From a virus, in the IMG/VR virus record IMGVR_UViG_3300017963_000102: a DNA stretch of 44,822 bases. One strand, 5' to 3'. The position numbers were made by a program, and so were the translations under genes. This document shows positions 1,410 to 31,470 of this stretch, piece after piece. A model generated the notes under the pieces. That model worked only from the letters and a program-made list of their open reading frames with translations. It did not search any database and had not been told where the DNA came from. Every line of letters begins with the position of its first letter. The first letter of the stretch is position 1.

Positions 1410-1876
1410 CGGCCGGCAGCCGACGCGCCAGCGGCGACGGCCTCGGTCGCGTCCTGCTCGGCCAGTACCTTCTGCATCGCAGCCGGGAGCAATTCGTCGA
1501 CCAGCTCCGGAAGCTTCTCCTGGTGAGCCGTGATCTGCTTCTGCCATTGTGGCGTGAGTTTCTTGACGACGGTGTCAAGGATCACCTGGGCCATGGCGTC
1601 GAGCTGCTTCGTGCCCTTGGTGAGCGCAGCCGCCAGGCTGGCCTCGCGTTTCTGGTGGTGCTCGTTGAGGGCCTGGCAGAACGTGTCGAGGTCATGGCCC
1701 TCGCGCATCTGGAGGTTCTTGGTGAAGGCCGTCTGCCCCCGCATCCAGGTGATGCTGACAATGCGGTGGCCTTTCGGGGTGACGCTCGGGTGCTCGGCGA
1801 CTTCGACAATGTCGTCTATGTCGACGTAGCACCGGTGTCCGTGCTCATTCAGAAGGGGGGTGGGGTAGAGTTTCAT
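1406..1876 (-). CDS. hypothetical protein (lone reverse-strand gene)
   Basis: 156-aa ORF with strong G/C third-position bias on the minus strand. It has an ATG start with GGAG 8 nt upstream. Its stop overlaps the convergent + strand stop (TTAG). Confidence 0.75.
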   Translation of the reverse strand: MKLYPTPLLNEHGHRCYVDIDDIVEVAEHPSVTPKGHRIVSITWMRGQTAFTKNLQMREGHDLDTFCQALNEHHQKREASLAAALTKGTKQLDAMAQVILDTVVKKLTPQWQKQITAHQEKLPELVDELLPAAMQKVLAEQDATEAVAAGASAAGR

Positions 1877-1994
1877 GCTCGAGCTCCAAAAGGGGATCGG
1901 GATTCATGGACGTCGCGATTGTAGTTGACAGCGGGCGCGGATGCTACTACATGGGGCCCTGGGGTCCGTCCAGCCCCACATGGAGACCCGGCTC

Positions 1995-2582
1995 ATGGAC
2001 CAGCTCAGACTCGCAACACTCGAGGCGAACGACCCGACCTTCGCGGACGACCTCAAGAAAAGCTACCCGCACGTCGACGCGATGGCGGGGTGGCTGCGTT
2101 CGCAGGGGTGGACTGTGAAAATCGGCCCCCGGAAGCAGCGGCCCAGCGTGAAGCAGATGGACGGGTTCCAGGATTGGGACCTTGAGATCAGCGGGCGCAT
2201 TGAGATCAAGCGGAAGGGGTGGGACTTCACGTGTGCGGCCGACTACGGGCTGTCGACAGGGAGGGCGATACCGTTCCCCACGGTGATCGTTTGCCCGCTC
2301 CACGAGTGGGAAAAGGCCGATCCCAAGCCGGTGGGGCACATCATTACGAGCCACGACCTCAAGGCGTTTGTGGAGGTGAAGACACGCACGGCGATGGCGT
2401 GGAACAAGGTGCAGAGATGGGACGAGGAGAAGGGGCGAGAGGGGACGTTCCTCGAGTGTCCTACGCTCCTGTGTCGTTTCGGGCCACTGCCGCCCGCGGT
2501 GGCCGAGGAATTCAAGCGGCTCACGGATGAGCAAGAAAAAAACGACCAAGAAGGGGAGCGCCAAGAAGGGGCGCACGAATAA
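1995..2582 (+). CDS. PD-(D/E)XK-like nuclease-fold protein (putative)
   Basis: The ORF is open from 1941. ATG 1995 has GGAG 10 nt upstream; alternative starts are 1941 and 1980. The motif DWDLEISGRIEIKRKG resembles a D...E-x-K nuclease core. The last ~56 nt overlap the next gene out of frame and use A-ending codons. Confidence 0.45.
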   Translation: MDQLRLATLEANDPTFADDLKKSYPHVDAMAGWLRSQGWTVKIGPRKQRPSVKQMDGFQDWDLEISGRIEIKRKGWDFTCAADYGLSTGRAIPFPTVIVCPLHEWEKADPKPVGHIITSHDLKAFVEVKTRTAMAWNKVQRWDEEKGREGTFLECPTLLCRFGPLPPAVAEEFKRLTDEQEKNDQEGERQEGAHE

Positions 2583-3111
2583 GAAGAGGGTCCGCACGCC
2601 CGTCGAGAAGGCGGAGGACCTGGACAAGCGGGTTCAGAACCGCCTGGCCCAGGTCGAAGCCGACGAGAGCGAGGCCCTGACGAACCTCCAGGCACTGTCT
2701 GACAGCTGGGGCGCCGACACCGAGACTCCCCTCCGAAAAGCCGCTAGAGCCGTTCTAACGGATTTCAGGGTATCAGAGCACTTCGATCGCTCATTCGCGG
2801 AGCTACGGGCCACCCTGGCGGCTGCACAGGCCGCTACGCTGCGTCTGCTCACCAGCAACATCCCCAAACACCAATCCCAGGGTCTGCGGGCCCTGAGCAA
2901 TCTCACGAACCAGATGCTTCGCCGGCGGGAGCAGGACGTCGAGATCGTGAAGGCGGCGTTGCAGGCGTCCGCGGTCGCGACCTACGAGCAGTTCCGGGCG
3001 ACGCTGGACCGGGCTCAGGGCCAGACCGGAAGCGTGGAGCAGCTCAACCGGGAGCTCGCTGCGGAGAGCGGCCCGCCGCCGACCAGCGCTCAGACTGGCG
3101 ACAAGGGGTAG
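2527..3111 (+). CDS. putative small terminase subunit
   Basis: 194-aa ORF immediately upstream of TerL. It has a Lys-rich N-terminus (MSKKKTTKKGSAKKGRTNKKR) and a helical remainder. The call rests on position only. Confidence 0.4.
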   Translation: MSKKKTTKKGSAKKGRTNKKRVRTPVEKAEDLDKRVQNRLAQVEADESEALTNLQALSDSWGADTETPLRKAARAVLTDFRVSEHFDRSFAELRATLAAAQAATLRLLTSNIPKHQSQGLRALSNLTNQMLRRREQDVEIVKAALQASAVATYEQFRATLDRAQGQTGSVEQLNRELAAESGPPPTSAQTGDKG

Positions 3112-3117
3112 TGTCGA

Positions 3118-4881
3118 GTGCCCAAGCTGAGCCGAGCCGATCGGGAGTATCTGCACCGACGGGCCCGAGTATTCACAGACGACGAGCGTCAAGAATACAA
3201 GGCGTGCAGCCCGTACATGGGGGTGGCGGGGTTTCGGCGGTTCTGTGAGCGGCACTGCAAGATCCAGGACAAGGACACGCTCGAGATCCTGCCGTTCGTC
3301 TGGTTCGTGGGCCAGGAGATCATCGCCGGCGACCTGGTCGCGTACACGTGGCTCTGGCTGCTGAAGGGCCGGCAGCTGGGGATCACCTGGCTGATCGCGG
3401 CGTACGTGCTCTGGCGGATCACATATCACAACCTGATGACGGTCTCGGTGTTGTTTCAGGAGCGGAAGTACGCGGAGGCGTTCATTTACCGGATCCGGTT
3501 CATGCGCAACCGGTTGCCACGCGTCTTCCGGAAGGAGATCACAACCGACAACAAGCAGCAGCTCGAGTTCAAGGCTGACGAGAACGAGGGGGAGATCCTG
3601 GCCCTGGTCGGGTCGGCCAAGGCGGGCCGGTCGTTGACGGGCGACATCGTCATCATCGACGAGGCGGATTATGTCGAGGGGCTTGACGAGACCATGCAGG
3701 CTTTGATCCCGATGCTGTCGGGGAAGGAGGCCCGCCGCGGGCAGCTGATCGGGCTGTCGACGGCGTCGGGCCCGGGGGGGCGGTTTCACGACACATGGGT
3801 CGAAACCTACGGGGAGTTCGGTGAGAAGCTGGAGAAGATAGACGAAGTAAGGGACAGTGAGAACAACTTGCTCGCCCAGAGCGGGACGGGGCCCAGCGGG
3901 TTCAAGGCTGTGTTTTTGTCGTGGCGTTGTCGGGCGGGACGCGACGACGCCTGGTACGCGGAGCAGGACAAGCTGCTAACGAAAGCGGGCGGGCCCAAGG
4001 CCACGAAGCGAGAGCACCCGAACACGCCGGAGGAGGCGTTCGAGTACGCGGCGGGGAGGATCTACGGGGCGTTCCACCGGTTCCAGCACGTCGGAGACAT
4101 CGACATCCCGACGACGGCCGAGCGATACCGGGCGATCGACTGGGGCCAGACGGAGAGCCCGTTCGTGTGCTTGTGGATCGCGCACGTGCCTGGGGATCCC
4201 GCCCTCCTGGTCTCGCCGAAGTGTCCGAACACGGTCCGCGAGATGCTCGCCTACCGGTACGACCCGGACAAGCCGGACGAGATCCTCAAGACGGACGACC
4301 ACTGCCCGGACGCTCTGCGCTATGCGGTTGTCACTTACGATCTGAAAGGCCTGGTGTACGTCTACCGCGAGGAGTACATCGAGGATCCGGTCGGCAGGGA
4401 CGAGACCGTTGCCAGCCTGGGCGTGAAGATGCACGAGAAATCAGGCTGGGAGCAGGATCCGGACGCTCGGGACGCGTGGGTACCCGGTCGCTTCGCCGAG
4501 CTCTATGATGGAACAGTGGCCGATCGCAGCTGGGGCCTGGTCATTCAGAGCCTCAACAAGATGAACCTGTCGATCCAGGGCCACAAAGCGATCAAGCGAC
4601 CCAGCGGGAAGCCCGATAAGAGTGCCAGGAAGCACCTCGAGGCGTTCGACGCGGCGAAGGGGGAGGTGAAGGACGGAATTGAGCTTGTGCGGCTGTTGGT
4701 AGCTGGTACCATACGGCTCGACGAGCGAATCGAAGTCGATCGCGGCAAGGTCGCTCTGGCGATACTTCGGGAGGACGCAGCGGGTCCGCGTGTGGCAGCA
4801 AGCCTGGAGCGTCGCAGCATGTATCTGCTCGCCCAGCGCGTGCTCAAAGCCTCACGAAAGAAAACACGCAAGAAGGGATAA
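3118..4881 (+). CDS. terL: terminase large subunit
   Basis: 587 aa with a GTG start. It has a TerL-type Walker A variant (LLKGRQLGITW), Walker B (IVIIDEAD) and C-terminal nuclease-type acidic motifs (AIDWGQTESPFVCLW, DDHCPDALRYAV). Confidence 0.9.
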   Translation: MPKLSRADREYLHRRARVFTDDERQEYKACSPYMGVAGFRRFCERHCKIQDKDTLEILPFVWFVGQEIIAGDLVAYTWLWLLKGRQLGITWLIAAYVLWRITYHNLMTVSVLFQERKYAEAFIYRIRFMRNRLPRVFRKEITTDNKQQLEFKADENEGEILALVGSAKAGRSLTGDIVIIDEADYVEGLDETMQALIPMLSGKEARRGQLIGLSTASGPGGRFHDTWVETYGEFGEKLEKIDEVRDSENNLLAQSGTGPSGFKAVFLSWRCRAGRDDAWYAEQDKLLTKAGGPKATKREHPNTPEEAFEYAAGRIYGAFHRFQHVGDIDIPTTAERYRAIDWGQTESPFVCLWIAHVPGDPALLVSPKCPNTVREMLAYRYDPDKPDEILKTDDHCPDALRYAVVTYDLKGLVYVYREEYIEDPVGRDETVASLGVKMHEKSGWEQDPDARDAWVPGRFAELYDGTVADRSWGLVIQSLNKMNLSIQGHKAIKRPSGKPDKSARKHLEAFDAAKGEVKDGIELVRLLVAGTIRLDERIEVDRGKVALAILREDAAGPRVAASLERRSMYLLAQRVLKASRKKTRKKG

Positions 4882-19734: not shown

Positions 19735-22700
19735 ATGCCCGACGAACCGAGCCTCCTGGACGTCGTGGCCCGTCGGTACGCCGAGAGCCGGGACCGCGTT
19801 CCTCCTGAGGCCGATGACGATCTGTTTCGAGCTGCGCAGCGTCACCAGCTGCCCCCGCTCGAGACTGCTGAACAGGACATCTTCAATGCCGCGCAGGCGG
19901 TGTTCCAGGGCGCGGCGGTCCCCGAGATCCGTCCGGCAGCACCCAGCCCAGAGCAACAGGCCCGTGACCGCGCAGCTGAGGAGAACATCCCCCTCCTCGA
20001 GCGACGTCCTGGAATAGAGGAACCCTACGGCGAGCTCGAGCGACGGGTGGCCCAGCGTGTCATCCGGGAGCAGGAGATCGGGGCGGAGGACTACGGAGAG
20101 CGGCGCCGGCTGTTCGATGAACGCATGGAGGCCGCGGCCCGCGAACGGTGGGCGGAGCGGGTCCGCGCCGAGCGTGAGCAATTCTACCGGGAGAACCCCG
20201 AGGCACGTCCCCCCGAGGCGATCGACCTGACCCGTCCGCAGATGGGGCCACCCGCGCCGGAACCGAAGCGTAAGCGGGTGGGGGCCTTGAAGCGTCTATT
20301 CGGCCCGCTGGTCAGAACCACGCAGGCACCGGCCCGCGTCACCGGGCGACTCATGCAGGAAACCCGCGCGAGCACCCTGGTCAACGAGATCGTGGAGCGG
20401 GAGACGCGGCACCGAAGACGAAACAAGTTACACACCCCCGAGCAGCTCGAGACCCAGTACGGTGTCGACGCGGCGGTGCGCCAGGAGCTCCTCGGCGGGT
20501 TTCCGATGTACGACGACCAGGCGTTCGACAAACAAAAGCAGCTCTACATGCTCTGGAAGTCCATCGAGGACAGCCATGGCGAGGCCTTGCCCGAGGCCCA
20601 GGGGTGGCTCGAGAAGCTGGCCACGTTCGGTGGGGATCTGGGCGCTTTCATCGCAGAGATCAGCATACTGCGGCAGACACCGGGTCTGGCCAGGTATTCG
20701 CGGCAGTACGCTCGAGGCGTGGCACCGGTCACGGCGCCGACCGGCCCCGAAGCACTCCGCCAGGCTACCAGGCAGCACCAGGTCGCCGGCGTGGCCCGCG
20801 AAACCCTCGCAGCTGGCGGGGTCGGCGCACTGCACGGAGAGGATCCGTTCCAGGCCATGCTGACGTTCGCTCCGTTCGGGGCGACCAGGTTCCTCAAGCC
20901 TGTGCAACGGACGATGGCGCAGTCTGCCCTGTTCGCTGGTCCGGACGTCATGGCTGGCGAGTGGCAGGACGCCATTGTGCATGGTGTCTTCGGCCCGCTG
21001 ATTTTCTCGATCCCGGATATGATCCGGTACCCGTTCCGAGCTCGCGGCGCTCGCCCGGAACCCATCGGAGACTGGGAACGCTTCGCCGATTCACCCAGCC
21101 AGGTCGAACGCCTGATCTACCGGTACATGAGCATCAACCGTGAAGTGCAGGGGTTCGCAGGACGCGAGGTCAGCGCAAACGAACTGAGAACGGCACAGAG
21201 CGAGGCGGGCCAGGCCGCGCAGGCCCTGGCGCGTCACTACGCTCGTGCCCAGGAAGGTCGGGGGGAGTACTCGCGCCAAGAGCAGGCGCTGCTGCGTGAG
21301 TTCGTCCACCATCACAGACCGGAGGCCGTGCAAGGCCGATGGCAAGAGGAGGCTCGTCATGCCCCTGAAGAAGGGATGCAACCAGGCGAACGTGTCGTCG
21401 AACATCCGAGAGATGAAGGACGCAGGCCACCCCCAGAAGGTCGCGGTCGCGGCGAGCCTCCGCGCGGCGGGGTGACCCCTGAAGAAGGACGCGGGCCAGT
21501 TGGCCCGACGGAAGCCAGGCCCCAAGAAAGGCCGCAAGCACGGCCCGAAGTGACCCCGAAACCTCCGGCCCCGCCCCCCTCTCCGGGACCGGAGGCCCCA
21601 CCAACAGCGGCACCGCCGAGACCGTCGGTCTCGGCTCCCAAGAAACCCGAACCGAGGCCGCCCGGCGGTGCCGCGCCTGGTGTACAAGTCGGTCAGCGGA
21701 CCGGATCCACAGAAGGCTACAAGGAGCGGTACCTCCAGCTTTACGGCGAGGAGATGCCGGCGTGGGCGGAGTCTCTTATCGAGACGCGACGGAAGGGCCC
21801 CGAGGGCGGAGGCAGGGAGGCACTCAAGGATGAACTCCGCTCCCTCGGGGTTCCTGAGAACCAGCTGAACCGGATGGCGATGACGTGGTATTTCCCGGAG
21901 ATGCCGGACCGGCCGTCGACGGTGATGGAGGCGATCAGGAGGACGAAGGAGGCGATGGCGCCGCCACCAGCCGAACCGGAGCGCCCCCCGGTCGCTGAGG
22001 AGGCTGCTGCAATCGAGCCCCCGGCTGACCTGCTGAAGTGGTGGGACGGCTTGAGTAACGCCGACCGCGCCGACGCGGCGGTGACGTTCGGCTGGACCAA
22101 GCAGGACGCGGCTCGCTACGCACAGGCCAGGTGGCAAGACCTTGCGAGGAGTGTCCAGGAGCACCTCGTCGAACGGTGGGAGAAGATGACCGAGACCGAT
22201 CGGGCGCAGCTGGGGCTGCCCAGGAGGCAAGCAGAGCAGCCGGTGCCGACGCCTGAGCCGGTCGACGTCGACGACGAAATCACACCAGAGACGATGCAAG
22301 CGGTTGGCCGTGAGCCCGAGGCGCCGGCGGAGCCGCCGGCGCTGCGAGCGGGTCTCGCTGAAGAATGGTGGGACAAGGAACTCACAACAGCAGGTAGACG
22401 GGACGTCCTTGCAGCCCTGGGACGGGAAGACGCGGCGGCGGAACTCGTGAGCCCGAAAGTTCGATGGCGACACATCCGTCACGACATGCAGGACGTTCTG
22501 CGGAGGGCCCTCGCAGAACGCACGTTGCCCCAGGAGCTATGGCCGGAGGAAATGACGCCGCCGGACGCAGCACAAGCGTGGTGGACAAATGCATCCCTTG
22601 CAGAGCGCCGGCGTGCGGCGGAGCAGATCGGCTACATCGAGGAGCATGGGGCGAAGCTGCTGGCCAAGGTGAGCTGGGAGCAGCTGAGTGCCGACGTGCA

Positions 22701-25700
22701 AGGCGACCTTCGAGCGGCAGTCGCCAGAGGGGAGCTGGGGGCACCAGAGCCCGCTCCGCAGCCTGTCGCAGCGCCCAGTGGGCCAGCGGCGCCGGAACGT
22801 CCCGTAACACCCCCGGAGGCGCCAGAGCTCGCCGAGGGGCCTGAGCCCCCCTTGCCGGGCATGGGTGACGTCGTGCGGGCCCGGCTTGTTTCCACCTACC
22901 GGAAGCTGCTGGCCCAGTACAAATCCCTGGTGCAGGAGGGGTACAAGTCCCCGGTTTACCAGGAGATCGTCGCCCGGAAGTCACGCGACTGGGAGCGCCA
23001 CGTGATTCCGGGTTCGGATATGGAGCGTGTACGCCAGGGCGGACCGTTCGACATCGGGAAGGACATCACGGATCAGTTCGAGAGCCCGCTGGCAATCGCG
23101 GAAACCAAGCGTAAGGACGCCATGGCCGTGTTCGAGTCGTGGCCTGAAGCCCGTGCCGTCGCGATCGCCAGGGACGTGGGGATAGACAAGCCGAGCCGGA
23201 CGCTGCTTGGTATACTAGAACAGGAGGCCGCAAGTGAAACGCTACCGACACGGGAAGAGGGTCCGCAGCCCCCGCCGGAAGAACCGGAAGGGCCAGCCGG
23301 ACTACCCACTCCGATTGGCCCCAGCCCAGGACCAACACCCACTGCTGGAGCCCCAGAGCCCGCCGCCCCAGGTGAGCGAGAAGGAGGCCGAGAGCCTGCT
23401 GTCAGCGAGCGGCCTCGAGGCGAAGAAGCACTGGGCGAAGCACCTACCGAAGCTGTTCGCGAGCCTCGTCCAGCAGAACCGGCTGAACCGGGCGCTTTAC
23501 CTGGCCCAGGAGCTGACGTTGAGGGCCGTCCACCGGTACCGGGAGAACGGCGTGCCGGCGAACCAAGCCCTGAGCCTAGTGAGCCAGGAGTGGCTCCTCC
23601 CGCCAAGCGAAGACGAAAGGCGCCTGGAGAACGAGCTCGCGGGGAACCTCGAGCCCGACCAGGTGCTCGCGAGCTACCACAAGAGGAGGGGGCGGTTCAG
23701 CCCAGGCCTGCCGAGCCCGAGCCGGAACCAGTCACCCATACCGAGCCCACCGTCGGAGGAAGCGACTACATAATCGCCGAGGACGATCCCCTGTTTGCCG
23801 AGGGGATGGGCAAGCGCGCAGCCCGCACCAACATCCAGGCGATCAGGGTGCTGAAGGAGGTGGAGTCCGAGAACCGTCCGGCCACGCCCGAGGAGCAGAC
23901 CCAGCTGGTGAAGTACCTCGGCTGGGGCTCGATGTCGGAAACCTTCAACACCTGGCGAACGGAGTGGGACGCGATCCGGAAGGAGCTCCAGGGCGTGCTG
24001 GACGCCGACGAGTACCAGGCCGCGGCCGACTCGACGAGCAACGCGATGTACACGCCTCCGCGGATCATCAAGGCGATGTACGCGGCGGTGATCGGTTTCG
24101 GGTTCCGGGGCGGGAGCGTCCTCGAGCCCGCGTCGGGTGTCGGGCACTTCTTCGGACTCATGCCTCCGGAGCTCCGCAAGCTGGTGACTCGCGTGGGGAT
24201 CGAGAAGGATTCGATCAGCGCGCGGATCGGGGCCCTACTCTACCCGCGGTCTGACATGCGTCGGACGCCGTTCGAGGAGGCCCAGCTCCCCAAGGACTAC
24301 TTCACGCTCGCGATCAGCAACGTCCCCTTCGGGAACGTGGCGATCTTCGACCCGCGGTACCCGCAGTGGGCGACGGCTGCGATTCACGACTATTTCTTCA
24401 TCAGGTCGCTCGACCTGGTCCGGCCTGGCGGGGTGGTGGCGTTCATCACCAGCAACGAGACCATGGACAAGGCCACGCCCTACGTGCGCCAAGGGATCGC
24501 GGAGAGAGCGGACCTGCTCGGTGCGGTCCGACTGAACAACAAGTCGCTGCCTGGCACACAGGTGGTGGCGGACATTATTTTCCTTCGCAAGCGCCTACCA
24601 GGTGAGGAGCCGGGGGGAGAGGCCTGGCTCAAATCCCCCCGGCTGCCGGAGCTCCGCGACTACACCGTCAACGAGTACTTTCATGCGCACCCGGAGATGG
24701 TCCTCGGCACATTCGCGCCGGGCACGTTCCACGCTCGTGGGGCCCGCATCACGGTCAACCCGCGGTCGAAGGAGGATCCTCTTGAAGGCCTGGCCGAAGC
24801 CGTCGCGGCGCTGCCTCACAACGTGATGACCGAGGCGGGCGACGTCACCGCGCCGAAGGATCCCGCCGACCTGGTCATGGCCCCGACCAGGGTACCTGTC
24901 GGCTCGTTCTTCCGGGTGGGTGACAAAGTGCACTACAAGGGGGAGAGCGAGACGGCGCCGCCGGCGGCAGTGATCGTGCGCGGCGAGATCCAGGCGAAGG
25001 AGCGGGCCAAAGCGGCGCGGAAGATCAAGCCAGGGCAGAAGCGGCCGGCCCTGCTCACGGCGAGCCAGATCGACAAGCTGGTCGCGGAGCGTGTCGAGCT
25101 CATCGGCGCCCAGGTGGAGCTCCGCGACGTTGTCCTCGAGCTGCTTCACCGGCAGGCCGTCAACGACGCCGAGGGATGGAAGGGGGCCCAGCGGGACCTG
25201 ACCAGAATCTACGACGCTTTCGTGAAGAAGTACGGCTACCTGCACAAACCGAAGAACGTCCGCGCCCTGGGCGACGACTACCACACCGCCGGCGTCCTGG
25301 ACGCTGTCGAGGTCTGGGATCCGAAGACGAAGCGGGCCACCAAGGCGCCGATCTTCGAGCGGCGCATGATCGCAGCTCACGAACGCAAGCTCCGCGCCGA
25401 GAGTCCGCAGGACGCGATCAACACGTCCATGAACGAGTACGGCAAGCTCGACCTGGCGTATATGGCCCAGCTGCTCGAGACGACGCCGGCGGGAGTGAAG
25501 CAGCAGCTGCTCGAGGGCGCCCTGGCGTTCGAGAGTCCCGCCGGCGAGCTCGTCGTCCGAGACGAATACCTTTCGGGGAACGTCCGCCAGAAACTCGCCG
25601 ACGCCGAGGCGGCTGCCCAGATGGATCCGGACCGGTACCGGGGAAACGTGGAGGCGCTGCGTGAGGTCATTCCCAAGGATCTGACGGTCAGCGAGATCAC

Positions 25701-28700
25701 CCCGCAGCTGGGCGCCCCCTGGATCCCGCAGGAGATCGTCCAGGCGTTCGGGCTGCACCTGTTCGGGGCGACGGAACGGGGCGGGCTGTTCATCCGGTAC
25801 ATCCCGGAGCTCGGCAAGTGGATCGTGCGCGGCGGGTACGAGGTGAGTTCGACGGTCGCAGCCAGGAGCAAGTGGGGAATGCCCGATCGACCAGGCCCGC
25901 AGCTGCTTGGTGACGCTCTCAGCAACCGGGCGCCGATCATCAAGGTCCAGGTAGGCGAGCGCGAGGACGGGACTCCGATCATGGAGGAGGACCCGATCGC
26001 GAGCGACGCCGCGGCCGAGAAGATCAAGGTGATCCGGGCCGAGTTCGAGCGGTGGATCTGGTCGGAGCCGAAGCGCACGAACCAACTGGTGAAGGCCTAC
26101 AACTTCGCGTTCAACAACCAGGCCCCTCGTGACTACGACGGCAGTTACTTAACTTTTCCGGGGATGAGTCCGACCTGGAACCTCTACGACTACCAGCGTA
26201 ACGCGGTGGCGTTCAACCTTCAGCGTGGATCCGGCCTGGTCAACCTCGAGCCCGGGGCGGGCAAGACGATGATCGCGATCGCCACGGCTCGCGAGCTCGT
26301 CCGTCTGGGCATGGCCCGCAAGCCGATGATCGTGGTGCAGGCCTCCACGCTGGAGCAGTTCCGACGTGACGCCAAGAGCATGTACCCGGGACACAGCTGG
26401 ACGGTGCTGACGGAGCAGGACACCGCGCCGGCGAACCTGCGCAAGACCCTGGCGAAGATCGCGACGACGGAGAGCACGGTCGTCATCATGTCGCACGAGC
26501 GTCTGCTGAAGCTGCCCATGTCGGCGGAGTACACGACCGACTACTTCGAGGAGAGGATCAACGACCTGAGCCGGGCGAAGGAGGCCGCGGCGCAGCTCGA
26601 GGGCGAGCACGGACGCACGGCAAAGGAGCTCGGCAAAGCCAGGGCCCGGATGCGCGTGCAGCTCCAGAAGCGTCTGCACGCGCTGAAGCAGATGGAGGGC
26701 ATGGGGTTCGAGCAGCTCGGGATCGACTACGTCATCTACGACGAGTCGCAGCGACTGAAAAACCTGGCGTACCAGACGCAGATGCAGCGAGTGAAGGGTC
26801 TGGGGCCCACCGAGGGCAACAACACCACGTTCGACGCCGAGATGAAGACAAAATACCTCCTCCGCCTCCAGAACGGGCGCGGGGTTCTGTTCCAGACTGC
26901 CACGCCGGTCTCGAACTCGATGGTCGAGCTCTACAACCTGACGCGGTTTCTGGCGCCGACGATGCTCGAGGGTCGCGGGATCACGACGTTCGACCAGTGG
27001 GTGGGCTCGTTCGGGTCCGTCGAGTCCGACGTGGAGAGCCTGGGCGAGGGCGGGTACCGGGACGTCCGCCGGCTGCGCGACTACGTGAACGTCGACGACT
27101 TCATGGCGATGTACGCAGACCACACCTACGTGGTGTCGAAAGACGACGTCCACGCCAGGTGGAAGGCCGAGGGCCGGCCGGCGCCCCTGATCGCGAAGAA
27201 CGCCGATGGTGAGCGGACCTGGCGTCTGATCGTCTCCCCGCCGAACGCGGCACACGAGGCCTACGTGAAGACGATCAAGGCGCGGGCGGAGGCCCTGAAG
27301 AAGCGGAAACGCCGGCCACGCAAGGGCGAGGACAACATTCTCAACGTCATCACCGACAACCGGATCGCCGGCCTTGACCTGAAACTGCGCCGGCCCGATG
27401 CCCCGCGCCACCCAGAGGACAAGATCAGCCGCCTGGCCCAGGAGATCATCACACGCCACGAGCGTGACGCCGGCGAGCGGCTGACGCAGCTCGTCGCCAT
27501 GAGCTTCGGGATTCCAAAGCCCGGCGAGTACTCCACGTACCACGAGCTCCGCGACCTGCTCGTCGAGGGCGGGATCCCCAAGGAGGAGATCGCGATCCTC
27601 CAGGAGGTCTCCGCGCAAAAGCGTCAAGAGCTGTTCGACAAGATGAACCGCGGCGACGTCCGCGTGCTCATGGGGACGATTCAGCTGCTGGGCATTGGGG
27701 TGAACGTGCAGGCCCGGCTCAAGACGTTGCACCTGGCGGATCCGGCGTACACACCAGACCGGATCGAGCAGATCCAGGGGCGAGCGGTCCGCCCAGGAAA
27801 CATGAACACCGAGGTCGAGCTGCTCGCCTACGTGCAGAAGGGCAGCGCCGACGAATTCATGTATTCGCTCGCGTTCCACAAGTGGCGGTTCCAGGGTGCT
27901 CTCCTCAGCGGGACGTTGAAGGGGGCCCGGACCTTCCAGGACGTCGACGTCATCGCCGGCGGGTTCGAGGCTGCGATGGCCCACGCCTCGAGGGCCCCGG
28001 TGGTCCTCGAGTGGACGAAAGCACGTAAGGCCCTTCAGCACTTGCAACGGCTGAAGACGGCCCACGAGGGCAGCCAGCGGGAGCTCCGCGCGCAGCTGGG
28101 GCGGTTGCAGGAGCTGGCCGACCGGATCCGGACCAGGACGCTGCCCGCGGCCCAGCGCGGGGCGAAGCTCGTCGGTGACGCCGCGGAGCAGGCCCTCCAG
28201 GTCACGGTGGGCGGAGTCACGTACACGAAGCCCGGAGAGGCGGGCGTGGCTCTGAACGACGCGGTGATGGCTATGCCGTTGAGCAGCGAGTTCCGACCGC
28301 TGGGCACAGTCAACGGCGTGGAGATCGAAGCGGCTCACGAGCAGCGGACCAGTGTGCATGAGACGTATGACGTCGCCATGTTTCGGCTTGCCGGCACGTC
28401 CATCACGTTCGGGTCGGAGCAGGGGGGGCACTGGTACCCCCAGGCTATCGACATCCACCCGAAACTGAAAAAGACCGGCGCGTCGTACATCACGAGGGAC
28501 GCCAAGCGGCTGCTCGAGATCCCGGCACAGCGGGCGGAACGCCTCCAAGAGCGTCTGGAGAAGACCGAAGCTGAGCTGGCCAGCGGCGAGAAGGAGCTGG
28601 GCCCGTTCGCGCGTGAGGCCGACCTGGCGGAGTACACCGCCAAGGAGGCGAAGCTGTCCGCGCAGGTCGAGGCCCTCGGCGCCGAGCCGGTCAAGCCGGG

Positions 28701-31470
28701 CGACACGTTCACGATGGAGGGCACGGAGTACAAGTACGTCCGGTCGATCGGCGATGAGATCGAGCTCGACATCATGGCTGCCCAGGGCCCTGACGTCGGA
28801 GAGGTCGGGGACGTCGCGGTTGCTCCCGAGGCCGCGGAGTCAAGGCGGTTTCCGCGGGCGGACCTGGTCGCCAAGCTGAAACGGGAGTTCGAGCTGACGG
28901 AGGACAAGCCCGGTACCAGCCCGGACGCCGGCGAGTGGCGGGAGCTCGAGCAGGAAGGGTACAGGCCGGCCAACTGGCTCGCGGGGGTGCCGGCGAACCA
29001 GCGGGCGAGTCTGCTGAAGTGGATCCGGGAGCACGGACCCGATCATCCGGCTTACGGCATGGGGGCGATGTTCAACTTTCCCGACGTCCGCGGGACCTGG
29101 ACGCGCATCTGGGACGGGTTCGCCGATTCGCTCCGGAGTCTGCCCCCTGGTCTCCGCAAGAAAGTTGTTGACGCGATCGGGCGGGCGGTCTGGGGTACCG
29201 ATCGGTGGAACGTGGATCCGGACGCCTGGCGTGCGATCCAGCGTTATCACGGCGGGATGCGCGAGGCGAAGTATGACGCGGACAAGATCACGGGGGCTGT
29301 AGAGGCTCGCATGGGCGAGCTCGAGAAAATGTACGGGCCCGGTGCCCGGGAGACGTTCAACAACTTACTCACCGACGTGGCGGAGGGACGCGAGGATCCG
29401 GCGCGCCTGGATCCGGTGAGCCGCCAGGTCTACGAACGGTATCGCGCCAAGGTGAACCAGCTCACGGACGAGTTCCTGAACGAGACCCACCTGCACAGCT
29501 ACGCGGAGGGGTTCGGCCTGACGAACCTGCTCGAGATCATCCAACGCAAGCGGGAGAGCCCGGGCGCCTACCTCCGCATGATCTTCCGGGAGCAGTACGA
29601 AACCGAATGGGCGGAGGGAACCCACCGGGAGAAGGTCCACAAACCGCGCAAGAAGCTCGAGGAGCGGAAGCGGATCCGGGCGATTCAGGGCGGGATGTTC
29701 AAACATCGGGCGTCGGCGGACCTCTGGACCGTCCGCAACTTCGACGGGACGTTCACGCAGTTCACTGACGCCGACCGCGCGTACGAGCACGCGAGGGAGC
29801 AGATCGACAACCCGGAGCTGAAGGAGCGGTATGGCACCAGCCTCGAGCAGCGTGTGCGCGTGACGGATCCCTTCGGCGAGGAGGCACTCGGCCACCTGGT
29901 ACCCGAGAAAAACATCCTGGTTCGGATGGGGCGGACCATCACCGACTGGCGGCACAACCTCGAGGTGCTTCGCCTGTTCTGGTACATCGACCAGACCGTC
30001 GCGAACGCCGAGAGGGTGGCGGACGACTGGGTACGCACGCCGCGCCACCCGCGGTGGGGGCCATTGGCGGAGAAGTACATCCCGCGCGAGCTCGCCGATG
30101 GCCTCATGGAGACGATTGTCGTGCGGACCGGGCTGTTGTCGCAGCTGTACGACTCCTACCTCTACGCATGGAAGGCGAGCAAGGTGGTCTACAATCCGTC
30201 GACCTGGGGCCGGAACATGCTGGGGCTCAACTTCTTCTGGCTCATGGACGGGATCCACCCGGTCAAAGATGCGCGCTGGTTCGTCGAGGCCGTGCGGCAC
30301 TTCCGGGAAGGGACGCCGACCTTCCGCCGGCTGCTGCGGGAGAACGAGATCAGCGCGGGGTACGCCGAGACGGAGATCGACCGGATCGACAAACTGATCC
30401 GGGATCCGCAGAATACCGTGACCACGGCGCTGGCCAAGTTCCTGAGCAGGCTGGACAGGATCACCAGGAAGACGGGGAATCTGTACGATCTTCCCGACCA
30501 GATCAGCAAGATGGCGTCCTACCTTCGCCATACGTCCGGCCAGGGGTGGAGTCACGAGGAAGCGGTCGCCGCGCTGCAAGGCTACCCGAACTACGCCAGG
30601 CGCGGGAACCTGACGGCCTGGGCCCGCCGCAGTCCGTTCGGGGCTTCGTTCATCGCTTTTGCCGGGGCCTCGGTGCAGGTGAACCTGCACTACGCCAGGA
30701 CGCGACCAGGCCGGTTGCTGATGATGTGGTTGTTGCCGGGGCTGACCACGCTGCTGACGAGTGTGATCCTCGGCCTGGAGGACGAGGAGATTGCGCTCGT
30801 GAACCATGGCGTCCGGCGCAAGACGAAGTCCCCCCTCGGCCGCTACGACCCGTTCGCGTGGATGGACCGGTATTTCATGCCCCTGCTGCCTTGGCGCGAC
30901 GATCAGGGCCGGGTGCGGCAGCTGGATCTGCGGTGGATCTTCCCGCTGGCCAATGATTTCCGGGTAAACACGGGGCCTGGCGGGTTCGGGATTCCCCTCC
31001 TGCTGTCGCAGCCCCTGACCAAGACGGGGATCGAGATCGCGATGAACCGGTCGAGCTGGACGGGCCGCGACATCGCCCGGGAGCACGACGAGCCGGTCGA
31101 GAAGGTGAGGGCGATCGCGAAACACGTGTTCGAGGGTGTTATCCCGCTGCCGACCATCACCACGCGCGGAGCGCGCCGGATCTACCTGGCGGCGACCGGC
31201 GATGAACGCTACCCGCTCATCAAGACCATCCTGAAAGAGCTGTTCGGGATCAACGTGTCGGCGCCATGGATCCGCCGAGAGGATGCGTTCCGAATGCTGA
31301 AGGAGATGAAGGGGGAGAAGGCCGCCAAGGCGTTCGAGGTCGCCTTGACGGCCTACAACGAAATCTACCGGTCCGACCGTGACAAACGCATCAAGAGCCG
31401 GGCGGTCTCCCAATCCCTACGACAGGGGCGGCGCCGGGAGTTACGATCTGCGAGGACCGGTCGGGGGTAA
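19735..31470 (+). CDS. giant 3,911-codon ORF: N6-adenine DNA methyltransferase + SNF2-like helicase (P1 DarB-like) with long N- and C-terminal extensions
   Basis: ATG with GGGAG upstream. Methyltransferase motif I is VLEPASGVGHFFG (~24118..24157) and motif IV is ISNVPFG (~24313..24333). Helicase motifs are motif I LEPGAGKTM (~26248), motif II IYDESQ (~26734), motif III FQTATPVSNSMVELYNL (~26890) and motif VI QIQGRAVRPGN (~27769). A hydrophobic helix (LLMMWLLPGLTTLLTSVILGL) lies at ~30710..30780. Continuity as one protein is uncertain because of two frame-switch islands (see findings). Confidence 0.75.
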   Translation: MPDEPSLLDVVARRYAESRDRVPPEADDDLFRAAQRHQLPPLETAEQDIFNAAQAVFQGAAVPEIRPAAPSPEQQARDRAAEENIPLLERRPGIEEPYGELERRVAQRVIREQEIGAEDYGERRRLFDERMEAAARERWAERVRAEREQFYRENPEARPPEAIDLTRPQMGPPAPEPKRKRVGALKRLFGPLVRTTQAPARVTGRLMQETRASTLVNEIVERETRHRRRNKLHTPEQLETQYGVDAAVRQELLGGFPMYDDQAFDKQKQLYMLWKSIEDSHGEALPEAQGWLEKLATFGGDLGAFIAEISILRQTPGLARYSRQYARGVAPVTAPTGPEALRQATRQHQVAGVARETLAAGGVGALHGEDPFQAMLTFAPFGATRFLKPVQRTMAQSALFAGPDVMAGEWQDAIVHGVFGPLIFSIPDMIRYPFRARGARPEPIGDWERFADSPSQVERLIYRYMSINREVQGFAGREVSANELRTAQSEAGQAAQALARHYARAQEGRGEYSRQEQALLREFVHHHRPEAVQGRWQEEARHAPEEGMQPGERVVEHPRDEGRRPPPEGRGRGEPPRGGVTPEEGRGPVGPTEARPQERPQARPEVTPKPPAPPPSPGPEAPPTAAPPRPSVSAPKKPEPRPPGGAAPGVQVGQRTGSTEGYKERYLQLYGEEMPAWAESLIETRRKGPEGGGREALKDELRSLGVPENQLNRMAMTWYFPEMPDRPSTVMEAIRRTKEAMAPPPAEPERPPVAEEAAAIEPPADLLKWWDGLSNADRADAAVTFGWTKQDAARYAQARWQDLARSVQEHLVERWEKMTETDRAQLGLPRRQAEQPVPTPEPVDVDDEITPETMQAVGREPEAPAEPPALRAGLAEEWWDKELTTAGRRDVLAALGREDAAAELVSPKVRWRHIRHDMQDVLRRALAERTLPQELWPEEMTPPDAAQAWWTNASLAERRRAAEQIGYIEEHGAKLLAKVSWEQLSADVQGDLRAAVARGELGAPEPAPQPVAAPSGPAAPERPVTPPEAPELAEGPEPPLPGMGDVVRARLVSTYRKLLAQYKSLVQEGYKSPVYQEIVARKSRDWERHVIPGSDMERVRQGGPFDIGKDITDQFESPLAIAETKRKDAMAVFESWPEARAVAIARDVGIDKPSRTLLGILEQEAASETLPTREEGPQPPPEEPEGPAGLPTPIGPSPGPTPTAGAPEPAAPGEREGGREPAVSERPRGEEALGEAPTEAVREPRPAEPAEPGALPGPGADVEGRPPVPGERRAGEPSPEPSEPGVAPPAKRRRKAPGERARGEPRARPGARELPQEEGAVQPRPAEPEPEPVTHTEPTVGGSDYIIAEDDPLFAEGMGKRAARTNIQAIRVLKEVESENRPATPEEQTQLVKYLGWGSMSETFNTWRTEWDAIRKELQGVLDADEYQAAADSTSNAMYTPPRIIKAMYAAVIGFGFRGGSVLEPASGVGHFFGLMPPELRKLVTRVGIEKDSISARIGALLYPRSDMRRTPFEEAQLPKDYFTLAISNVPFGNVAIFDPRYPQWATAAIHDYFFIRSLDLVRPGGVVAFITSNETMDKATPYVRQGIAERADLLGAVRLNNKSLPGTQVVADIIFLRKRLPGEEPGGEAWLKSPRLPELRDYTVNEYFHAHPEMVLGTFAPGTFHARGARITVNPRSKEDPLEGLAEAVAALPHNVMTEAGDVTAPKDPADLVMAPTRVPVGSFFRVGDKVHYKGESETAPPAAVIVRGEIQAKERAKAARKIKPGQKRPALLTASQIDKLVAERVELIGAQVELRDVVLELLHRQAVNDAEGWKGAQRDLTRIYDAFVKKYGYLHKPKNVRALGDDYHTAGVLDAVEVWDPKTKRATKAPIFERRMIAAHERKLRAESPQDAINTSMNEYGKLDLAYMAQLLETTPAGVKQQLLEGALAFESPAGELVVRDEYLSGNVRQKLADAEAAAQMDPDRYRGNVEALREVIPKDLTVSEITPQLGAPWIPQEIVQAFGLHLFGATERGGLFIRYIPELGKWIVRGGYEVSSTVAARSKWGMPDRPGPQLLGDALSNRAPIIKVQVGEREDGTPIMEEDPIASDAAAEKIKVIRAEFERWIWSEPKRTNQLVKAYNFAFNNQAPRDYDGSYLTFPGMSPTWNLYDYQRNAVAFNLQRGSGLVNLEPGAGKTMIAIATARELVRLGMARKPMIVVQASTLEQFRRDAKSMYPGHSWTVLTEQDTAPANLRKTLAKIATTESTVVIMSHERLLKLPMSAEYTTDYFEERINDLSRAKEAAAQLEGEHGRTAKELGKARARMRVQLQKRLHALKQMEGMGFEQLGIDYVIYDESQRLKNLAYQTQMQRVKGLGPTEGNNTTFDAEMKTKYLLRLQNGRGVLFQTATPVSNSMVELYNLTRFLAPTMLEGRGITTFDQWVGSFGSVESDVESLGEGGYRDVRRLRDYVNVDDFMAMYADHTYVVSKDDVHARWKAEGRPAPLIAKNADGERTWRLIVSPPNAAHEAYVKTIKARAEALKKRKRRPRKGEDNILNVITDNRIAGLDLKLRRPDAPRHPEDKISRLAQEIITRHERDAGERLTQLVAMSFGIPKPGEYSTYHELRDLLVEGGIPKEEIAILQEVSAQKRQELFDKMNRGDVRVLMGTIQLLGIGVNVQARLKTLHLADPAYTPDRIEQIQGRAVRPGNMNTEVELLAYVQKGSADEFMYSLAFHKWRFQGALLSGTLKGARTFQDVDVIAGGFEAAMAHASRAPVVLEWTKARKALQHLQRLKTAHEGSQRELRAQLGRLQELADRIRTRTLPAAQRGAKLVGDAAEQALQVTVGGVTYTKPGEAGVALNDAVMAMPLSSEFRPLGTVNGVEIEAAHEQRTSVHETYDVAMFRLAGTSITFGSEQGGHWYPQAIDIHPKLKKTGASYITRDAKRLLEIPAQRAERLQERLEKTEAELASGEKELGPFAREADLAEYTAKEAKLSAQVEALGAEPVKPGDTFTMEGTEYKYVRSIGDEIELDIMAAQGPDVGEVGDVAVAPEAAESRRFPRADLVAKLKREFELTEDKPGTSPDAGEWRELEQEGYRPANWLAGVPANQRASLLKWIREHGPDHPAYGMGAMFNFPDVRGTWTRIWDGFADSLRSLPPGLRKKVVDAIGRAVWGTDRWNVDPDAWRAIQRYHGGMREAKYDADKITGAVEARMGELEKMYGPGARETFNNLLTDVAEGREDPARLDPVSRQVYERYRAKVNQLTDEFLNETHLHSYAEGFGLTNLLEIIQRKRESPGAYLRMIFREQYETEWAEGTHREKVHKPRKKLEERKRIRAIQGGMFKHRASADLWTVRNFDGTFTQFTDADRAYEHAREQIDNPELKERYGTSLEQRVRVTDPFGEEALGHLVPEKNILVRMGRTITDWRHNLEVLRLFWYIDQTVANAERVADDWVRTPRHPRWGPLAEKYIPRELADGLMETIVVRTGLLSQLYDSYLYAWKASKVVYNPSTWGRNMLGLNFFWLMDGIHPVKDARWFVEAVRHFREGTPTFRRLLRENEISAGYAETEIDRIDKLIRDPQNTVTTALAKFLSRLDRITRKTGNLYDLPDQISKMASYLRHTSGQGWSHEEAVAALQGYPNYARRGNLTAWARRSPFGASFIAFAGASVQVNLHYARTRPGRLLMMWLLPGLTTLLTSVILGLEDEEIALVNHGVRRKTKSPLGRYDPFAWMDRYFMPLLPWRDDQGRVRQLDLRWIFPLANDFRVNTGPGGFGIPLLLSQPLTKTGIEIAMNRSSWTGRDIAREHDEPVEKVRAIAKHVFEGVIPLPTITTRGARRIYLAATGDERYPLIKTILKELFGINVSAPWIRREDAFRMLKEMKGEKAAKAFEVALTAYNEIYRSDRDKRIKSRAVSQSLRQGRRRELRSARTGRG
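21359..21475 (+). CDS. nested +1-frame small ORF (38 aa) inside the giant ORF
   Basis: GGAGG (21348..21352), a 6-nt spacer, then ATG 21359. The product is MPLKKGCNQANVSSNIREMKDAGHPQKVAVAASLRAAG. The +1 frame carries the G/C third-position signal here. After TGA 21473..21475 the same frame continues with a Lys-rich tail to TGA 21551..21553. Confidence 0.5.
   Translation: MPLKKGCNQANVSSNIREMKDAGHPQKVAVAASLRAAG
23234..23773 (+). CDS. nested +1-frame ORF (179 aa) inside the giant ORF; TnpV-like helical core (tentative)
   Basis: AGGAGG (23222..23227), a 6-nt spacer, then GTG 23234. This is the first start after TAG 23216..23218 in this frame. Hand count over 23372..23701: 102/110 codons end in G/C in this frame against 44/110 in the giant-ORF frame. 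The product reads as a normal helical protein (HWAKHLPKLFASLVQQNRLNRALYLAQELTLRAV...EWLLPPSEDE). Confidence 0.55.
   Translation: MKRYRHGKRVRSPRRKNRKGQPDYPLRLAPAQDQHPLLEPQSPPPQVSEKEAESLLSASGLEAKKHWAKHLPKLFASLVQQNRLNRALYLAQELTLRAVHRYRENGVPANQALSLVSQEWLLPPSEDERRLENELAGNLEPDQVLASYHKRRGRFSPGLPSPSRNQSPIPSPPSEEATT

Follow-up and report, generated by a model that had tools for sequence, protein, structure and literature searches.

Rz1, the o-spanin gene, lies wholly inside the i-spanin gene Rz in the +1 frame, and in overprinted genes such as B in A and E in D of phiX174, or L of MS2, a new frame was born inside an old gene. Here we describe a locus in which the reverse history seems to have produced a similar arrangement. 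In a 44,822-nucleotide stretch of viral DNA (IMG/VR record IMGVR_UViG_3300017963_000102, the whole of which we call the window), a small gene for a TnpV-like helical protein is probably nested, out of frame and intact, in a linker of a giant gene for a DarB-like polyvalent virion protein.

The likeness to the Rz/Rz1 pairs of lambda-like and Bcep22-like phages is that a longer late gene contains, out of frame, the whole of a small one that has a ribosome-binding site and start of its own, both products presumably being made from one mRNA. An embedded Rz1 has been described for the related phage JC1 (PMC9144972). The locus in the window differs in that the host is a polyvalent virion gene of ~12 kb, of which only a low-complexity linker is overlapped, and in that the nested gene is the older partner, with free-standing relatives and a product predicted to be soluble and helical rather than a lipoprotein. 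The features by which Rz1 is recognised within Rz, namely an open reading frame (ORF) wholly inside a longer one, its own ribosome-binding site and start, and selection on both frames, all recur here. With classical overprinting the locus shares the reading of one stretch of DNA in two frames under asymmetric constraint, but here the short nested frame is the old and constrained one and the long ORF is the young, weakly constrained frame, an arrangement that fits gene fusion across a retained gene.

The two partners each have described counterparts. The giant gene resembles DarB of phage P1 and the giants of Bcep22-type podophages in its methylase and SNF2-helicase dyad, its place in the virion morphogenesis module and its membership of PHROG 10089, and DarB-like giants have been classed as polyvalent proteins (Iyer et al. 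2017, PMC5512222). The literature on PLxRFG, DarB-like and polyvalent proteins that we covered, which did not include Gill et al. 2011 on Bcep22 gp75, describes no out-of-frame gene. The small protein resembles TnpV, known from mobilizable transposons (Tn4451/Tn4453) and related Clostridial elements; TnpV is of similar size (~110 amino acids, aa) and has the same motif order (…H.x.P.x.Y/F…L…G.L…L…). Free-standing relatives of the small protein also occur, like TnpV, in mobile elements with a Mob relaxase and a recombinase, whereas the window copy sits in a phage virion gene.

A small gene in the linker of a giant virion gene

The phage nature of the window is apparent from its genes for large terminase, portal, major head and internal virion protein, downstream of which, in the position of a morphogenesis-module gene, comes the giant ORF. 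In Pfam the giant ORF matches SNF2-rel_dom (expectation value, E, 2.7e-9), Helicase_C and ResIII and, weakly, Eco57I methylase. Its C-terminal two thirds, the part after 23776, match PHROG 10089, 'DarB-like antirestriction', at E=0, and PHROG 11801, a methyltransferase, matches the ORF at 2e-166. The adenine-methylase and SNF2-helicase dyad by which DarB-like proteins are recognised is present, with the methylase weak in Pfam. That the giant protein is packaged in the virion is suggested here by gene position; its homologue gp69 has been detected in JC1 virions (PMC9144972). The protein begins with an N-terminal part of 1,161 aa, followed by the linker and then the methylase and SNF2-helicase core. 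The main features are as follows.

19735..31470, + strand: host gene, a 3,911-codon ORF for a DarB-like polyvalent virion protein (ORF list, Pfam, PHROG)
23216..23218, + strand: TAG, upstream stop of the +1 frame, just 5' of the nested gene
23218..23775, + strand: linker reading in the giant frame, rich in Pro/Glu/Gly/Ala/Arg and poor in hydrophobic residues, joining the N-terminal part to the DarB-like core
23222..23227, + strand: Shine-Dalgarno sequence AGGAGG, 6 nucleotides (nt) before GTG 23234
23234..23773, + strand: nested +1-frame gene of 179 codons (GTG to TAA) for a TnpV-like small helical protein
23372..23374, + strand: GTG, alternative in-frame start that lacks a Shine-Dalgarno sequence, 19 codons before HW
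23417..23629, + strand: conserved core of the nested protein (hmmsearch alignment, residues 67-137 of the segment 23219..23770)
23771..23773, + strand: TAA, closing stop of the nested gene
23800..28689, + strand: start of the DarB-like methylase-helicase module (PHROG 10089 profile positions 1580-3215 of 4647), directly 3' of the nested gene

The nested ORF is contained entirely in 19735..31470, on the same strand and in the +1 frame. An earlier note on this DNA, made from the letters and an ORF list, had proposed a gene hidden in this frame and had placed its TAG, AGGAGG and GTG at the positions given above, where all three are indeed found. The core of the protein includes an HWAKHLP motif (23429..23449), and its ends are a basic, predicted disordered N-terminal extension, comprising the first 48 residues of the 179-aa product, and a Pro/Ser-rich tail. 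In the giant protein a YLGWG motif follows 162 aa after the HW, as it does in relatives. The N-terminal 1,161 aa (19735..23217) have no PHROG match at E<=1e-5. The corresponding parts of the relatives' giant proteins carry transglycosylase or peptidase domains, unlike that of the window.

Codon usage marks the +1 frame as the coding one across this island. Between 23372 and 23701, 102 of 110 codons in the +1 frame end in G or C, exactly the number in the earlier hand count, against 45 of 110 in the giant frame (44 by hand). G+C at codon positions 1, 2 and 3 is 0.69/0.47/0.82 for the giant ORF overall, and a sliding profile along it switches cleanly from ~23260 to ~23710, becoming 0.88-0.96/0.70-0.76/0.38-0.50, as it should where coding is in the +1 frame. 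The switch that the earlier proposal implied is seen in a frame-resolved profile of the whole giant ORF. The codons that had been singled out as unusual in the giant-frame reading of the island are enriched 4- to 10-fold: GAA (0.097 vs 0.016), CCA (0.070 vs 0.007), CCT (0.059 vs 0.007), GGA (0.054 vs 0.008), CGA (0.043 vs 0.008) and GCT (0.048 vs 0.012). The resulting linker is 24% Pro, 18% Glu, 13% Gly, 13% Ala and 10% Arg, and its hydrophobic residues make up 9%, compared with 28% in the whole giant protein.

Among all alternative-frame ORFs in the giant gene, the nested ORF is the top outlier in G+C at third codon positions (GC3 0.88, with 0.47 at second positions, GC2, and a host GC3 there of 0.47), and it alone has a 5-nt Shine-Dalgarno core before its first start. 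The +1 frame is intact for 184 codons, and the extension 23234..23371 is coding-like as well, with a GC3 of 39/46 in the +1 frame and 23/46 in the giant frame. Two other alternative-frame ORFs with high GC3, 22688..22807 and 22304..22450, were dropped on the grounds that their peptides read as nonsense. A promoter and terminator scan of 22700..24100 gave nothing above shuffled expectation, and a search for direct repeats flanking the nested gene, as a sign of insertion, gave one 10-nt pair, its spacing not a multiple of three and probably due to chance.

The HWKEHLP family and the constraint on the two frames

A tblastn search with the +1 peptide gave matches inside the DarB-like giant genes of PBC5, of the Klebsiella phages SopranoGao, LASTA and SJM3, of the Erwinia phages PEp14, Pavtok and Stean, and of the Pseudomonas phage Itty13, and a second search added VvAW1, Mwe-JY07, Atu_ph08 and POI1126. 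When translated, the loci of the first search show a 105-110-aa ORF starting MNLN.W..QAR.HWKEH.P in the +1 frame, with the giant frame a low-complexity read-through, and we refer to these proteins as the HWKEHLP family. A profile of the phage homologues retrieved 146 homologues of 83-199 aa, as well as 23 IMG/VR loci and 6 genome loci, the scan of genome contigs having used a narrow search pattern. At 31/31 distinct loci of phages or prophages, the ORF in whose +1 frame the homologue is found is open beyond the nested gene on both sides, and in most of them this giant-type ORF is open across the whole fetched stretch of 6-8 kb. Eleven of these loci are from isolates (PEp14, Pavtok, Stean, LASTA, SJM3, SopranoGao, Itty13, VvAW1, Mwe-JY07, Atu_ph08 and POI1126).

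The window copy belongs to this family. A family profile of 119 members, built without the window copy, finds the segment 23219..23770 at E 4.9e-14 (47.8 bits, hmmsearch), and this segment is the profile's sole match among the 761 six-frame segments of the window. Alignment A1 (five sequences, from the window and four phage homologues) has 16 invariant columns, each of them kept by the window copy. The family is large: an exhaustive profile search of 1.84 billion cluster representatives (50% identity) gave 1,209 matches at E<=1e-3, and nearly all of the top 150 are 58-190 aa long with the domain starting from residue 1.

Free-standing members occur in mobile DNA. One, of 112 aa, is encoded in an island of Klebsiella pneumoniae together with a Toprim/DUF927 primase and an LPD37 gene; another, of 99 aa, shares an integrative mobilizable element of Corticibacter with genes for an integrase and a Mob_Pre relaxase. 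Nested members always lie at a domain junction of the giant protein, directly before the methylase-helicase dyad in one phage group and before a 'DLVWG' domain in PBC5-type phages. A comparison of giant proteins with the genes around free-standing homologues brought out a single weak link: downstream of the Klebsiella homologue, a 156-aa gene (L005 9148..9618) weakly matches the PBC5-type 'DLVWG' domain (E 5e-4). This match is a hint of a module order shared by island and giant gene, and of an origin of the giant by fusion across a small gene that was retained.

The closest relative of the window's nested protein, at 43% identity, is encoded on a contig binned as Thermodesulfobacteriota (L032, 3682..4365, JBEKDJ010000078.1). 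That gene encodes 117 aa, is preceded by AAAGGAGG-N6-ATG with the start 17 codons before HW, and has 58% G+C in a 45% G+C contig. A giant-like frame is open around it for 227 codons, with no giant ORF there, and the locus may be the remnant of a decayed giant gene.

In the phage records that we checked, no separate coding sequence (CDS) is listed under any of the matches, and the giant gene alone is annotated. In the Itty13 record (L004, NC_070969.1 5006..11419), the giant DarB-like ORF is open on the minus strand; what is annotated, on the other strand, are long 'hypothetical protein' CDSs, which are probably spurious ORFs antisense to this G+C-rich gene.

Substitutions among the relatives follow the nested frame. 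Divergence at nested codon positions 1/2/3 is 0.32/0.31/0.45 over 351 pairs and 0.155/0.142/0.291 in close pairs, and amino-acid identity is 0.55 in the nested frame and 0.39 in the giant frame. The methylase N-terminus of these loci served as control and diverges at 0.30/0.24/0.55 in the giant frame. Across 270 substitutions in 11 phylogenetically independent close pairs, changes that are silent in the nested frame and replacing in the giant frame occur at 2.36 times opportunity, and the reverse class, giant-silent and nested-replacing, at 0.54 times. This excess of nested-silent substitutions indicates that the nested protein is the constrained reading.

The giant frame, in turn, appears to be kept open. 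We left the nested protein unchanged and resampled its codons among synonyms according to the codon usage of the giant gene, whereupon the probability that the giant frame is open was 0.0007-0.26 per locus and 0.02 for the window. Over 12 lineages less than 60% identical in the nested core the joint probability is ~1e-19, an approximate value that assumes independence. The earlier note had ascribed the open giant frame to third positions of the nested gene being locked to G or C, so that T-initial stops cannot form. This accounts for the window genome, where T makes up 1% of third positions and where shuffling the nested gene's own codons leaves the frame open in 69% of permutations, but not for relatives of 48-58% G+C (among them L030, L002 and VvAW1), in which the frame is open despite odds of 0.0007-0.02. 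Openness in these relatives points to selection for an open giant frame.

In these comparisons, then, selection on the nested frame appears to act on its amino-acid sequence, and selection on the giant frame only on its freedom from stops. We think it likely that both frames are maintained and that 23234..23773 is truly dual-coding. Of the two possibilities raised in the earlier note, that of a real gene nested in the linker of a virion protein has gained support from the relatives, from purifying selection and from the conserved start and ribosome-binding site.

Initiation and alternative explanations

Across the family, the nested gene has the marks of ordinary internal initiation. An ATG or GTG lies 11-13 codons before HW in 30 of the 31 nested loci, and in 22 of these 30 it is preceded by GGAG or GAGG 5-16 nt upstream, compared with 7.7% at random positions in the same loci. 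Of the eight without it, three show a good Shine-Dalgarno sequence ahead of another ATG, which lies two or three codons 5' of the usual one. Several phages have a stop in the nested frame only 2-8 codons ahead of the ATG; with so little space left for a frameshift, this points to internal initiation. In the window the best candidate for the start is GTG 23234 with its AGGAGG-N6, and the product would be 179 aa long from there or 133 aa from GTG 23372. The combination of AGGAGG-N6 with the coding-like GC3 of 23234..23371 favours the longer form, which is probably the product.

Like Rz1 within Rz, the nested protein would arise from ribosomes that initiate internally on the giant gene's late mRNA, and the giant frame would be read straight through the same DNA as a disordered Pro/Glu/Gly/Ala/Arg linker before the methylase and SNF2-helicase core. 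As to origin, the most likely course is that neighbouring genes of a module array fused into one polyvalent ORF that reads across the retained small gene. Its product would most likely be a non-enzymatic binding or adaptor protein, serving a DNA-entry/antirestriction module or the handling of the giant protein.

Several observations weigh against this picture of an expressed, dual-coding gene. The window copy is the most divergent member of the family (22-43% identity), and its N- and C-terminal extensions have no counterpart elsewhere. It departs from the canonical form of ~100-115 aa with a start 11-13 codons before HW: nothing that could serve as the family start is found at 12 codons, the candidates being 19 (GTG 23372) and 65 (GTG 23234) codons before HW, and the exact start is uncertain. 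The lineages behind the joint probability of ~1e-19 are not fully independent. The equivalent frame is also open in two of three free-standing homologues, which means either that family composition and high GC3 contribute to openness or that those copies derive from nested ones. Structure and database searches offer little on function: a fold search of the PDB with the AlphaFold model found nothing at E<=0.001 (the best match, 2apl, PG0816 of P. gingivalis, had E 0.21 and a template-modelling score, TM, of ~0.4), the only significant match in a viral fold library was the PBC5 fused homologue itself, a profile search of PDB sequences gave one chance-level match, and PADLOC defence-system models gave none.

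One alternative is that the nested gene of the window phage is a relic that was inherited with the linker, has lost its canonical start and is no longer expressed, so that the giant frame alone matters here. The missing family start, the extreme divergence with its odd extensions and the lack of a Pfam TnpV match at E<=1 would all fit. A relic would hardly be expected, however, to keep an intact +1 frame of 184 codons and all 16 invariant columns of alignment A1, nor a GC3 of 0.88-0.93 with normal GC2, with giant-frame GC3 depressed to 0.47. The perfect AGGAGG-N6-GTG, the 39/46 against 23/46 GC3 of the extension and the confident structure model speak against it as well, and we regard a relic as unlikely.

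Alternatively, the giant ORF could be three genes, an N-terminal one, the small one and a DarB-like one, with the giant frame open by chance through G/C-locked third positions. The share of codon permutations that leave the window's frame open (69%) allows for this, as do the two open free-standing homologues, and a gene caller run on a contig that starts at 22653 did call the small gene followed by a 2,554-aa gene from ATG 23806. Yet the upstream part has no stop in its own frame, and ribosomes must consequently run through the island, and the frame is open in all 31 nested loci, including those of 48-58% G+C (P 0.0007-0.02), with the joint probability of ~1e-19. The earlier note had offered as its second possibility that the 3,911-codon ORF is not a single translation unit; the giant frame being open across the nested gene in every lineage, beyond chance, this has lost its footing, and we consider three separate genes very improbable.

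Equally improbable in our view is recoding, in which a +1 shift just before the island, ending at TAA 23773, would fuse the N-terminal part to a TnpV-like C-terminal domain. An internal Shine-Dalgarno-like sequence can stimulate +1 shifting, as in prfB, and AGGAGG could act in this way. In PBC5, moreover, the domain continues the frame of the 2,080 aa before it, and the annotated CDS stops directly behind the domain; PHROG 938 (2,185 positions) has the domain at its C-terminus, and the viral fold library matches the fused protein. PBC5 nevertheless lacks a single base that four relatives have ~50 nt before the nested ATG, and this deletion explains the split annotation, the C-terminal domain of PHROG 938 and the fold-library match alike. 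The window itself has no slippery or stop-codon shift motif at 23219..23233. Elsewhere the start codon is kept in 30 of 31 loci with a Shine-Dalgarno sequence at initiation spacing, the nested-frame stop 2-8 codons before the ATG in several loci stands in the way of a shift, and database homologues are almost all ~100 aa long and begin at the canonical start.

The deletion in PBC5, a Sinorhizobium phage (L012 ~3936, NC_003324.1), is evident against Atu_ph08 and three relatives from metagenomes. Its effect is to join the nested protein onto the 2,080 aa encoded before it and to break the giant gene in two, of which the downstream part carries no RefSeq annotation. The deletion is a genuine mutation or else an error of old sequencing.

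A sequencing or assembly artefact, in which a compensating pair of indels put a normal in-frame domain out of frame, has nothing in its favour beyond the frame switch itself and the single-base frame errors or mutations near the site in PBC5, and is exceedingly improbable given that three other assemblies from different samples or pipelines (ENA ERZ27256798, ENA ERZ27256773 and Logan SRR6963591) have no indels over the region and at most one mismatch, outside the island, that the same arrangement recurs in 31 independently sequenced loci, and that the +1 ORF has its own stops, start and Shine-Dalgarno sequence.

Relation to TnpV, further nested ORFs and implications

The earlier note had also pointed, by eye, to a likeness to TnpV. 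Through the relatives it proves to be real: PF14198 (TnpV) is the top match for 8/8 members tested and for 49/74 in the alignment, at the same profile positions each time. All these scores, however, are sub-threshold (14-23 bits, E 4e-5 to 0.05, against a Pfam gathering cut-off of 27 bits), and the window copy itself has no PF14198 match at E<=1 and only a chance-level match to Ctf4_C in Pfam. We take the relationship to be probably genuine but remote. The hosts here are Proteobacteria, Cyanobacteria and their phages rather than the Firmicutes of TnpV, and the role of TnpV, proposed to be Xis-like and to act in excision, is itself conjectural (PMC3158075).

AlphaFold models the nested protein as a helical bundle with a core at residues 49-136 (predicted local distance difference test, pLDDT, 84-92). 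Most conserved positions are hydrophobic or cap helices, the motif varies even at its second His, and no catalytic motif is conserved. This pattern of conservation argues for a protein that is most likely a binding or adaptor protein rather than an enzyme, as far as sequence and model allow.

The giant gene of the window contains a second nested ORF in another of its linkers, and a further one is found in Bcep22-type phages.

21346..21475, + strand: second nested +1 mini-gene, with GAGGAGG at 21346..21352, 6 nt, ATG at 21359, 38 codons and TGA at 21473..21475
L048 2030..2371 (Burkholderia phage BcepMigl, NC_019917.1 ~51609..51950): 107-aa +1 ORF, AGGAGG-N9-ATG, GC3 0.85 vs 0.44 for the host; unannotated

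The mini-gene encodes the peptide MPLKKGCNQANVSSNIREMKDAGHPQKVAVAASLRAAG ('MPLKKG') and has a GC3 of 35/38 vs 18/38 in the giant frame. Its stand-alone homologues (P0121-P0130) are 44-69 aa long and 66-76% identical, and tblastn gives matches in 136 phage records, for instance at the N-terminal end of a CDS of 193 aa that lies among genes for internal virion proteins (L047). A perfect 13-nt direct repeat, CCCCTGAAGAAGG, at 21362..21374 and 21476..21488 brackets the mini-gene at a spacing of 114 nt, or 38 codons, and beyond the TGA the same frame reads PLKKDAGQLARRKPGPKKGRKHGPK*, which resembles the basic tail of the homologues. The repeat and the tail suggest a partial duplication or the insertion of a cassette, of a length that is a multiple of three.

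In Bcep22-type phages the HWKEHLP family is absent, and a different +1 ORF, the 107-aa one, occupies the same junction, upstream of the methylase module. It is 74-100% conserved in Bcep22, BcepIL02, CSP3, DC1 and JC1, and its motif similarity to the HWKEHLP family is weak and non-significant (hhalign E 0.007, probability 5%). BcepMigl has another +1 ORF at L048 182..346, of 54 aa and with a GC3 of 0.81 vs 0.39 for the host, whose peptide is unremarkable. It is preceded by CAGGAGGCCGCCA-ATG, nearly identical to CAGGAGGCCGCAA-GTG at 23221..23236 of the window, a likeness that may be a coincidence arising from the shared Q-E-A-A reading of the giant frame.

The two nested genes of the window, each with (G)AGGAGG-N6-start, and the Bcep22-type 107-aa ORF are the basis for a broader suggestion, which we make tentatively and hold to be somewhat doubtful: that giant polyvalent virion genes routinely carry translated +1 small genes in their linkers, having grown by bridging retained genes, and that the nested products are obligatory partners of the giants. 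If so, a nested product could be a chaperone, a packaging adaptor or an inhibitor that holds toxic domains in check until packaging, and the arrangement would guarantee the joint inheritance and expression of the partners.

The conserved nested gene is a new example of an embedded phage gene and is apparently unannotated. Gene finders drop ORFs that lie wholly within a longer ORF, and this gene was apparently missed in every checked record of a widespread podophage group that infects Klebsiella, Pseudomonas, Erwinia, Vibrio, Agrobacterium, Ochrobactrum and Microcystis. Linker deletions, truncations and tags in antirestriction giants also alter the small gene, and DarB-like phenotypes may be confounded by this. 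The small protein stands for a large family (1,209 cluster representatives), an uncharacterised relative of TnpV that is linked to the entry of mobile-element DNA. For the giants themselves, dual coding with a weakly constrained long frame suggests that polyvalent proteins are assembled by fusion across a gene without that gene being lost.

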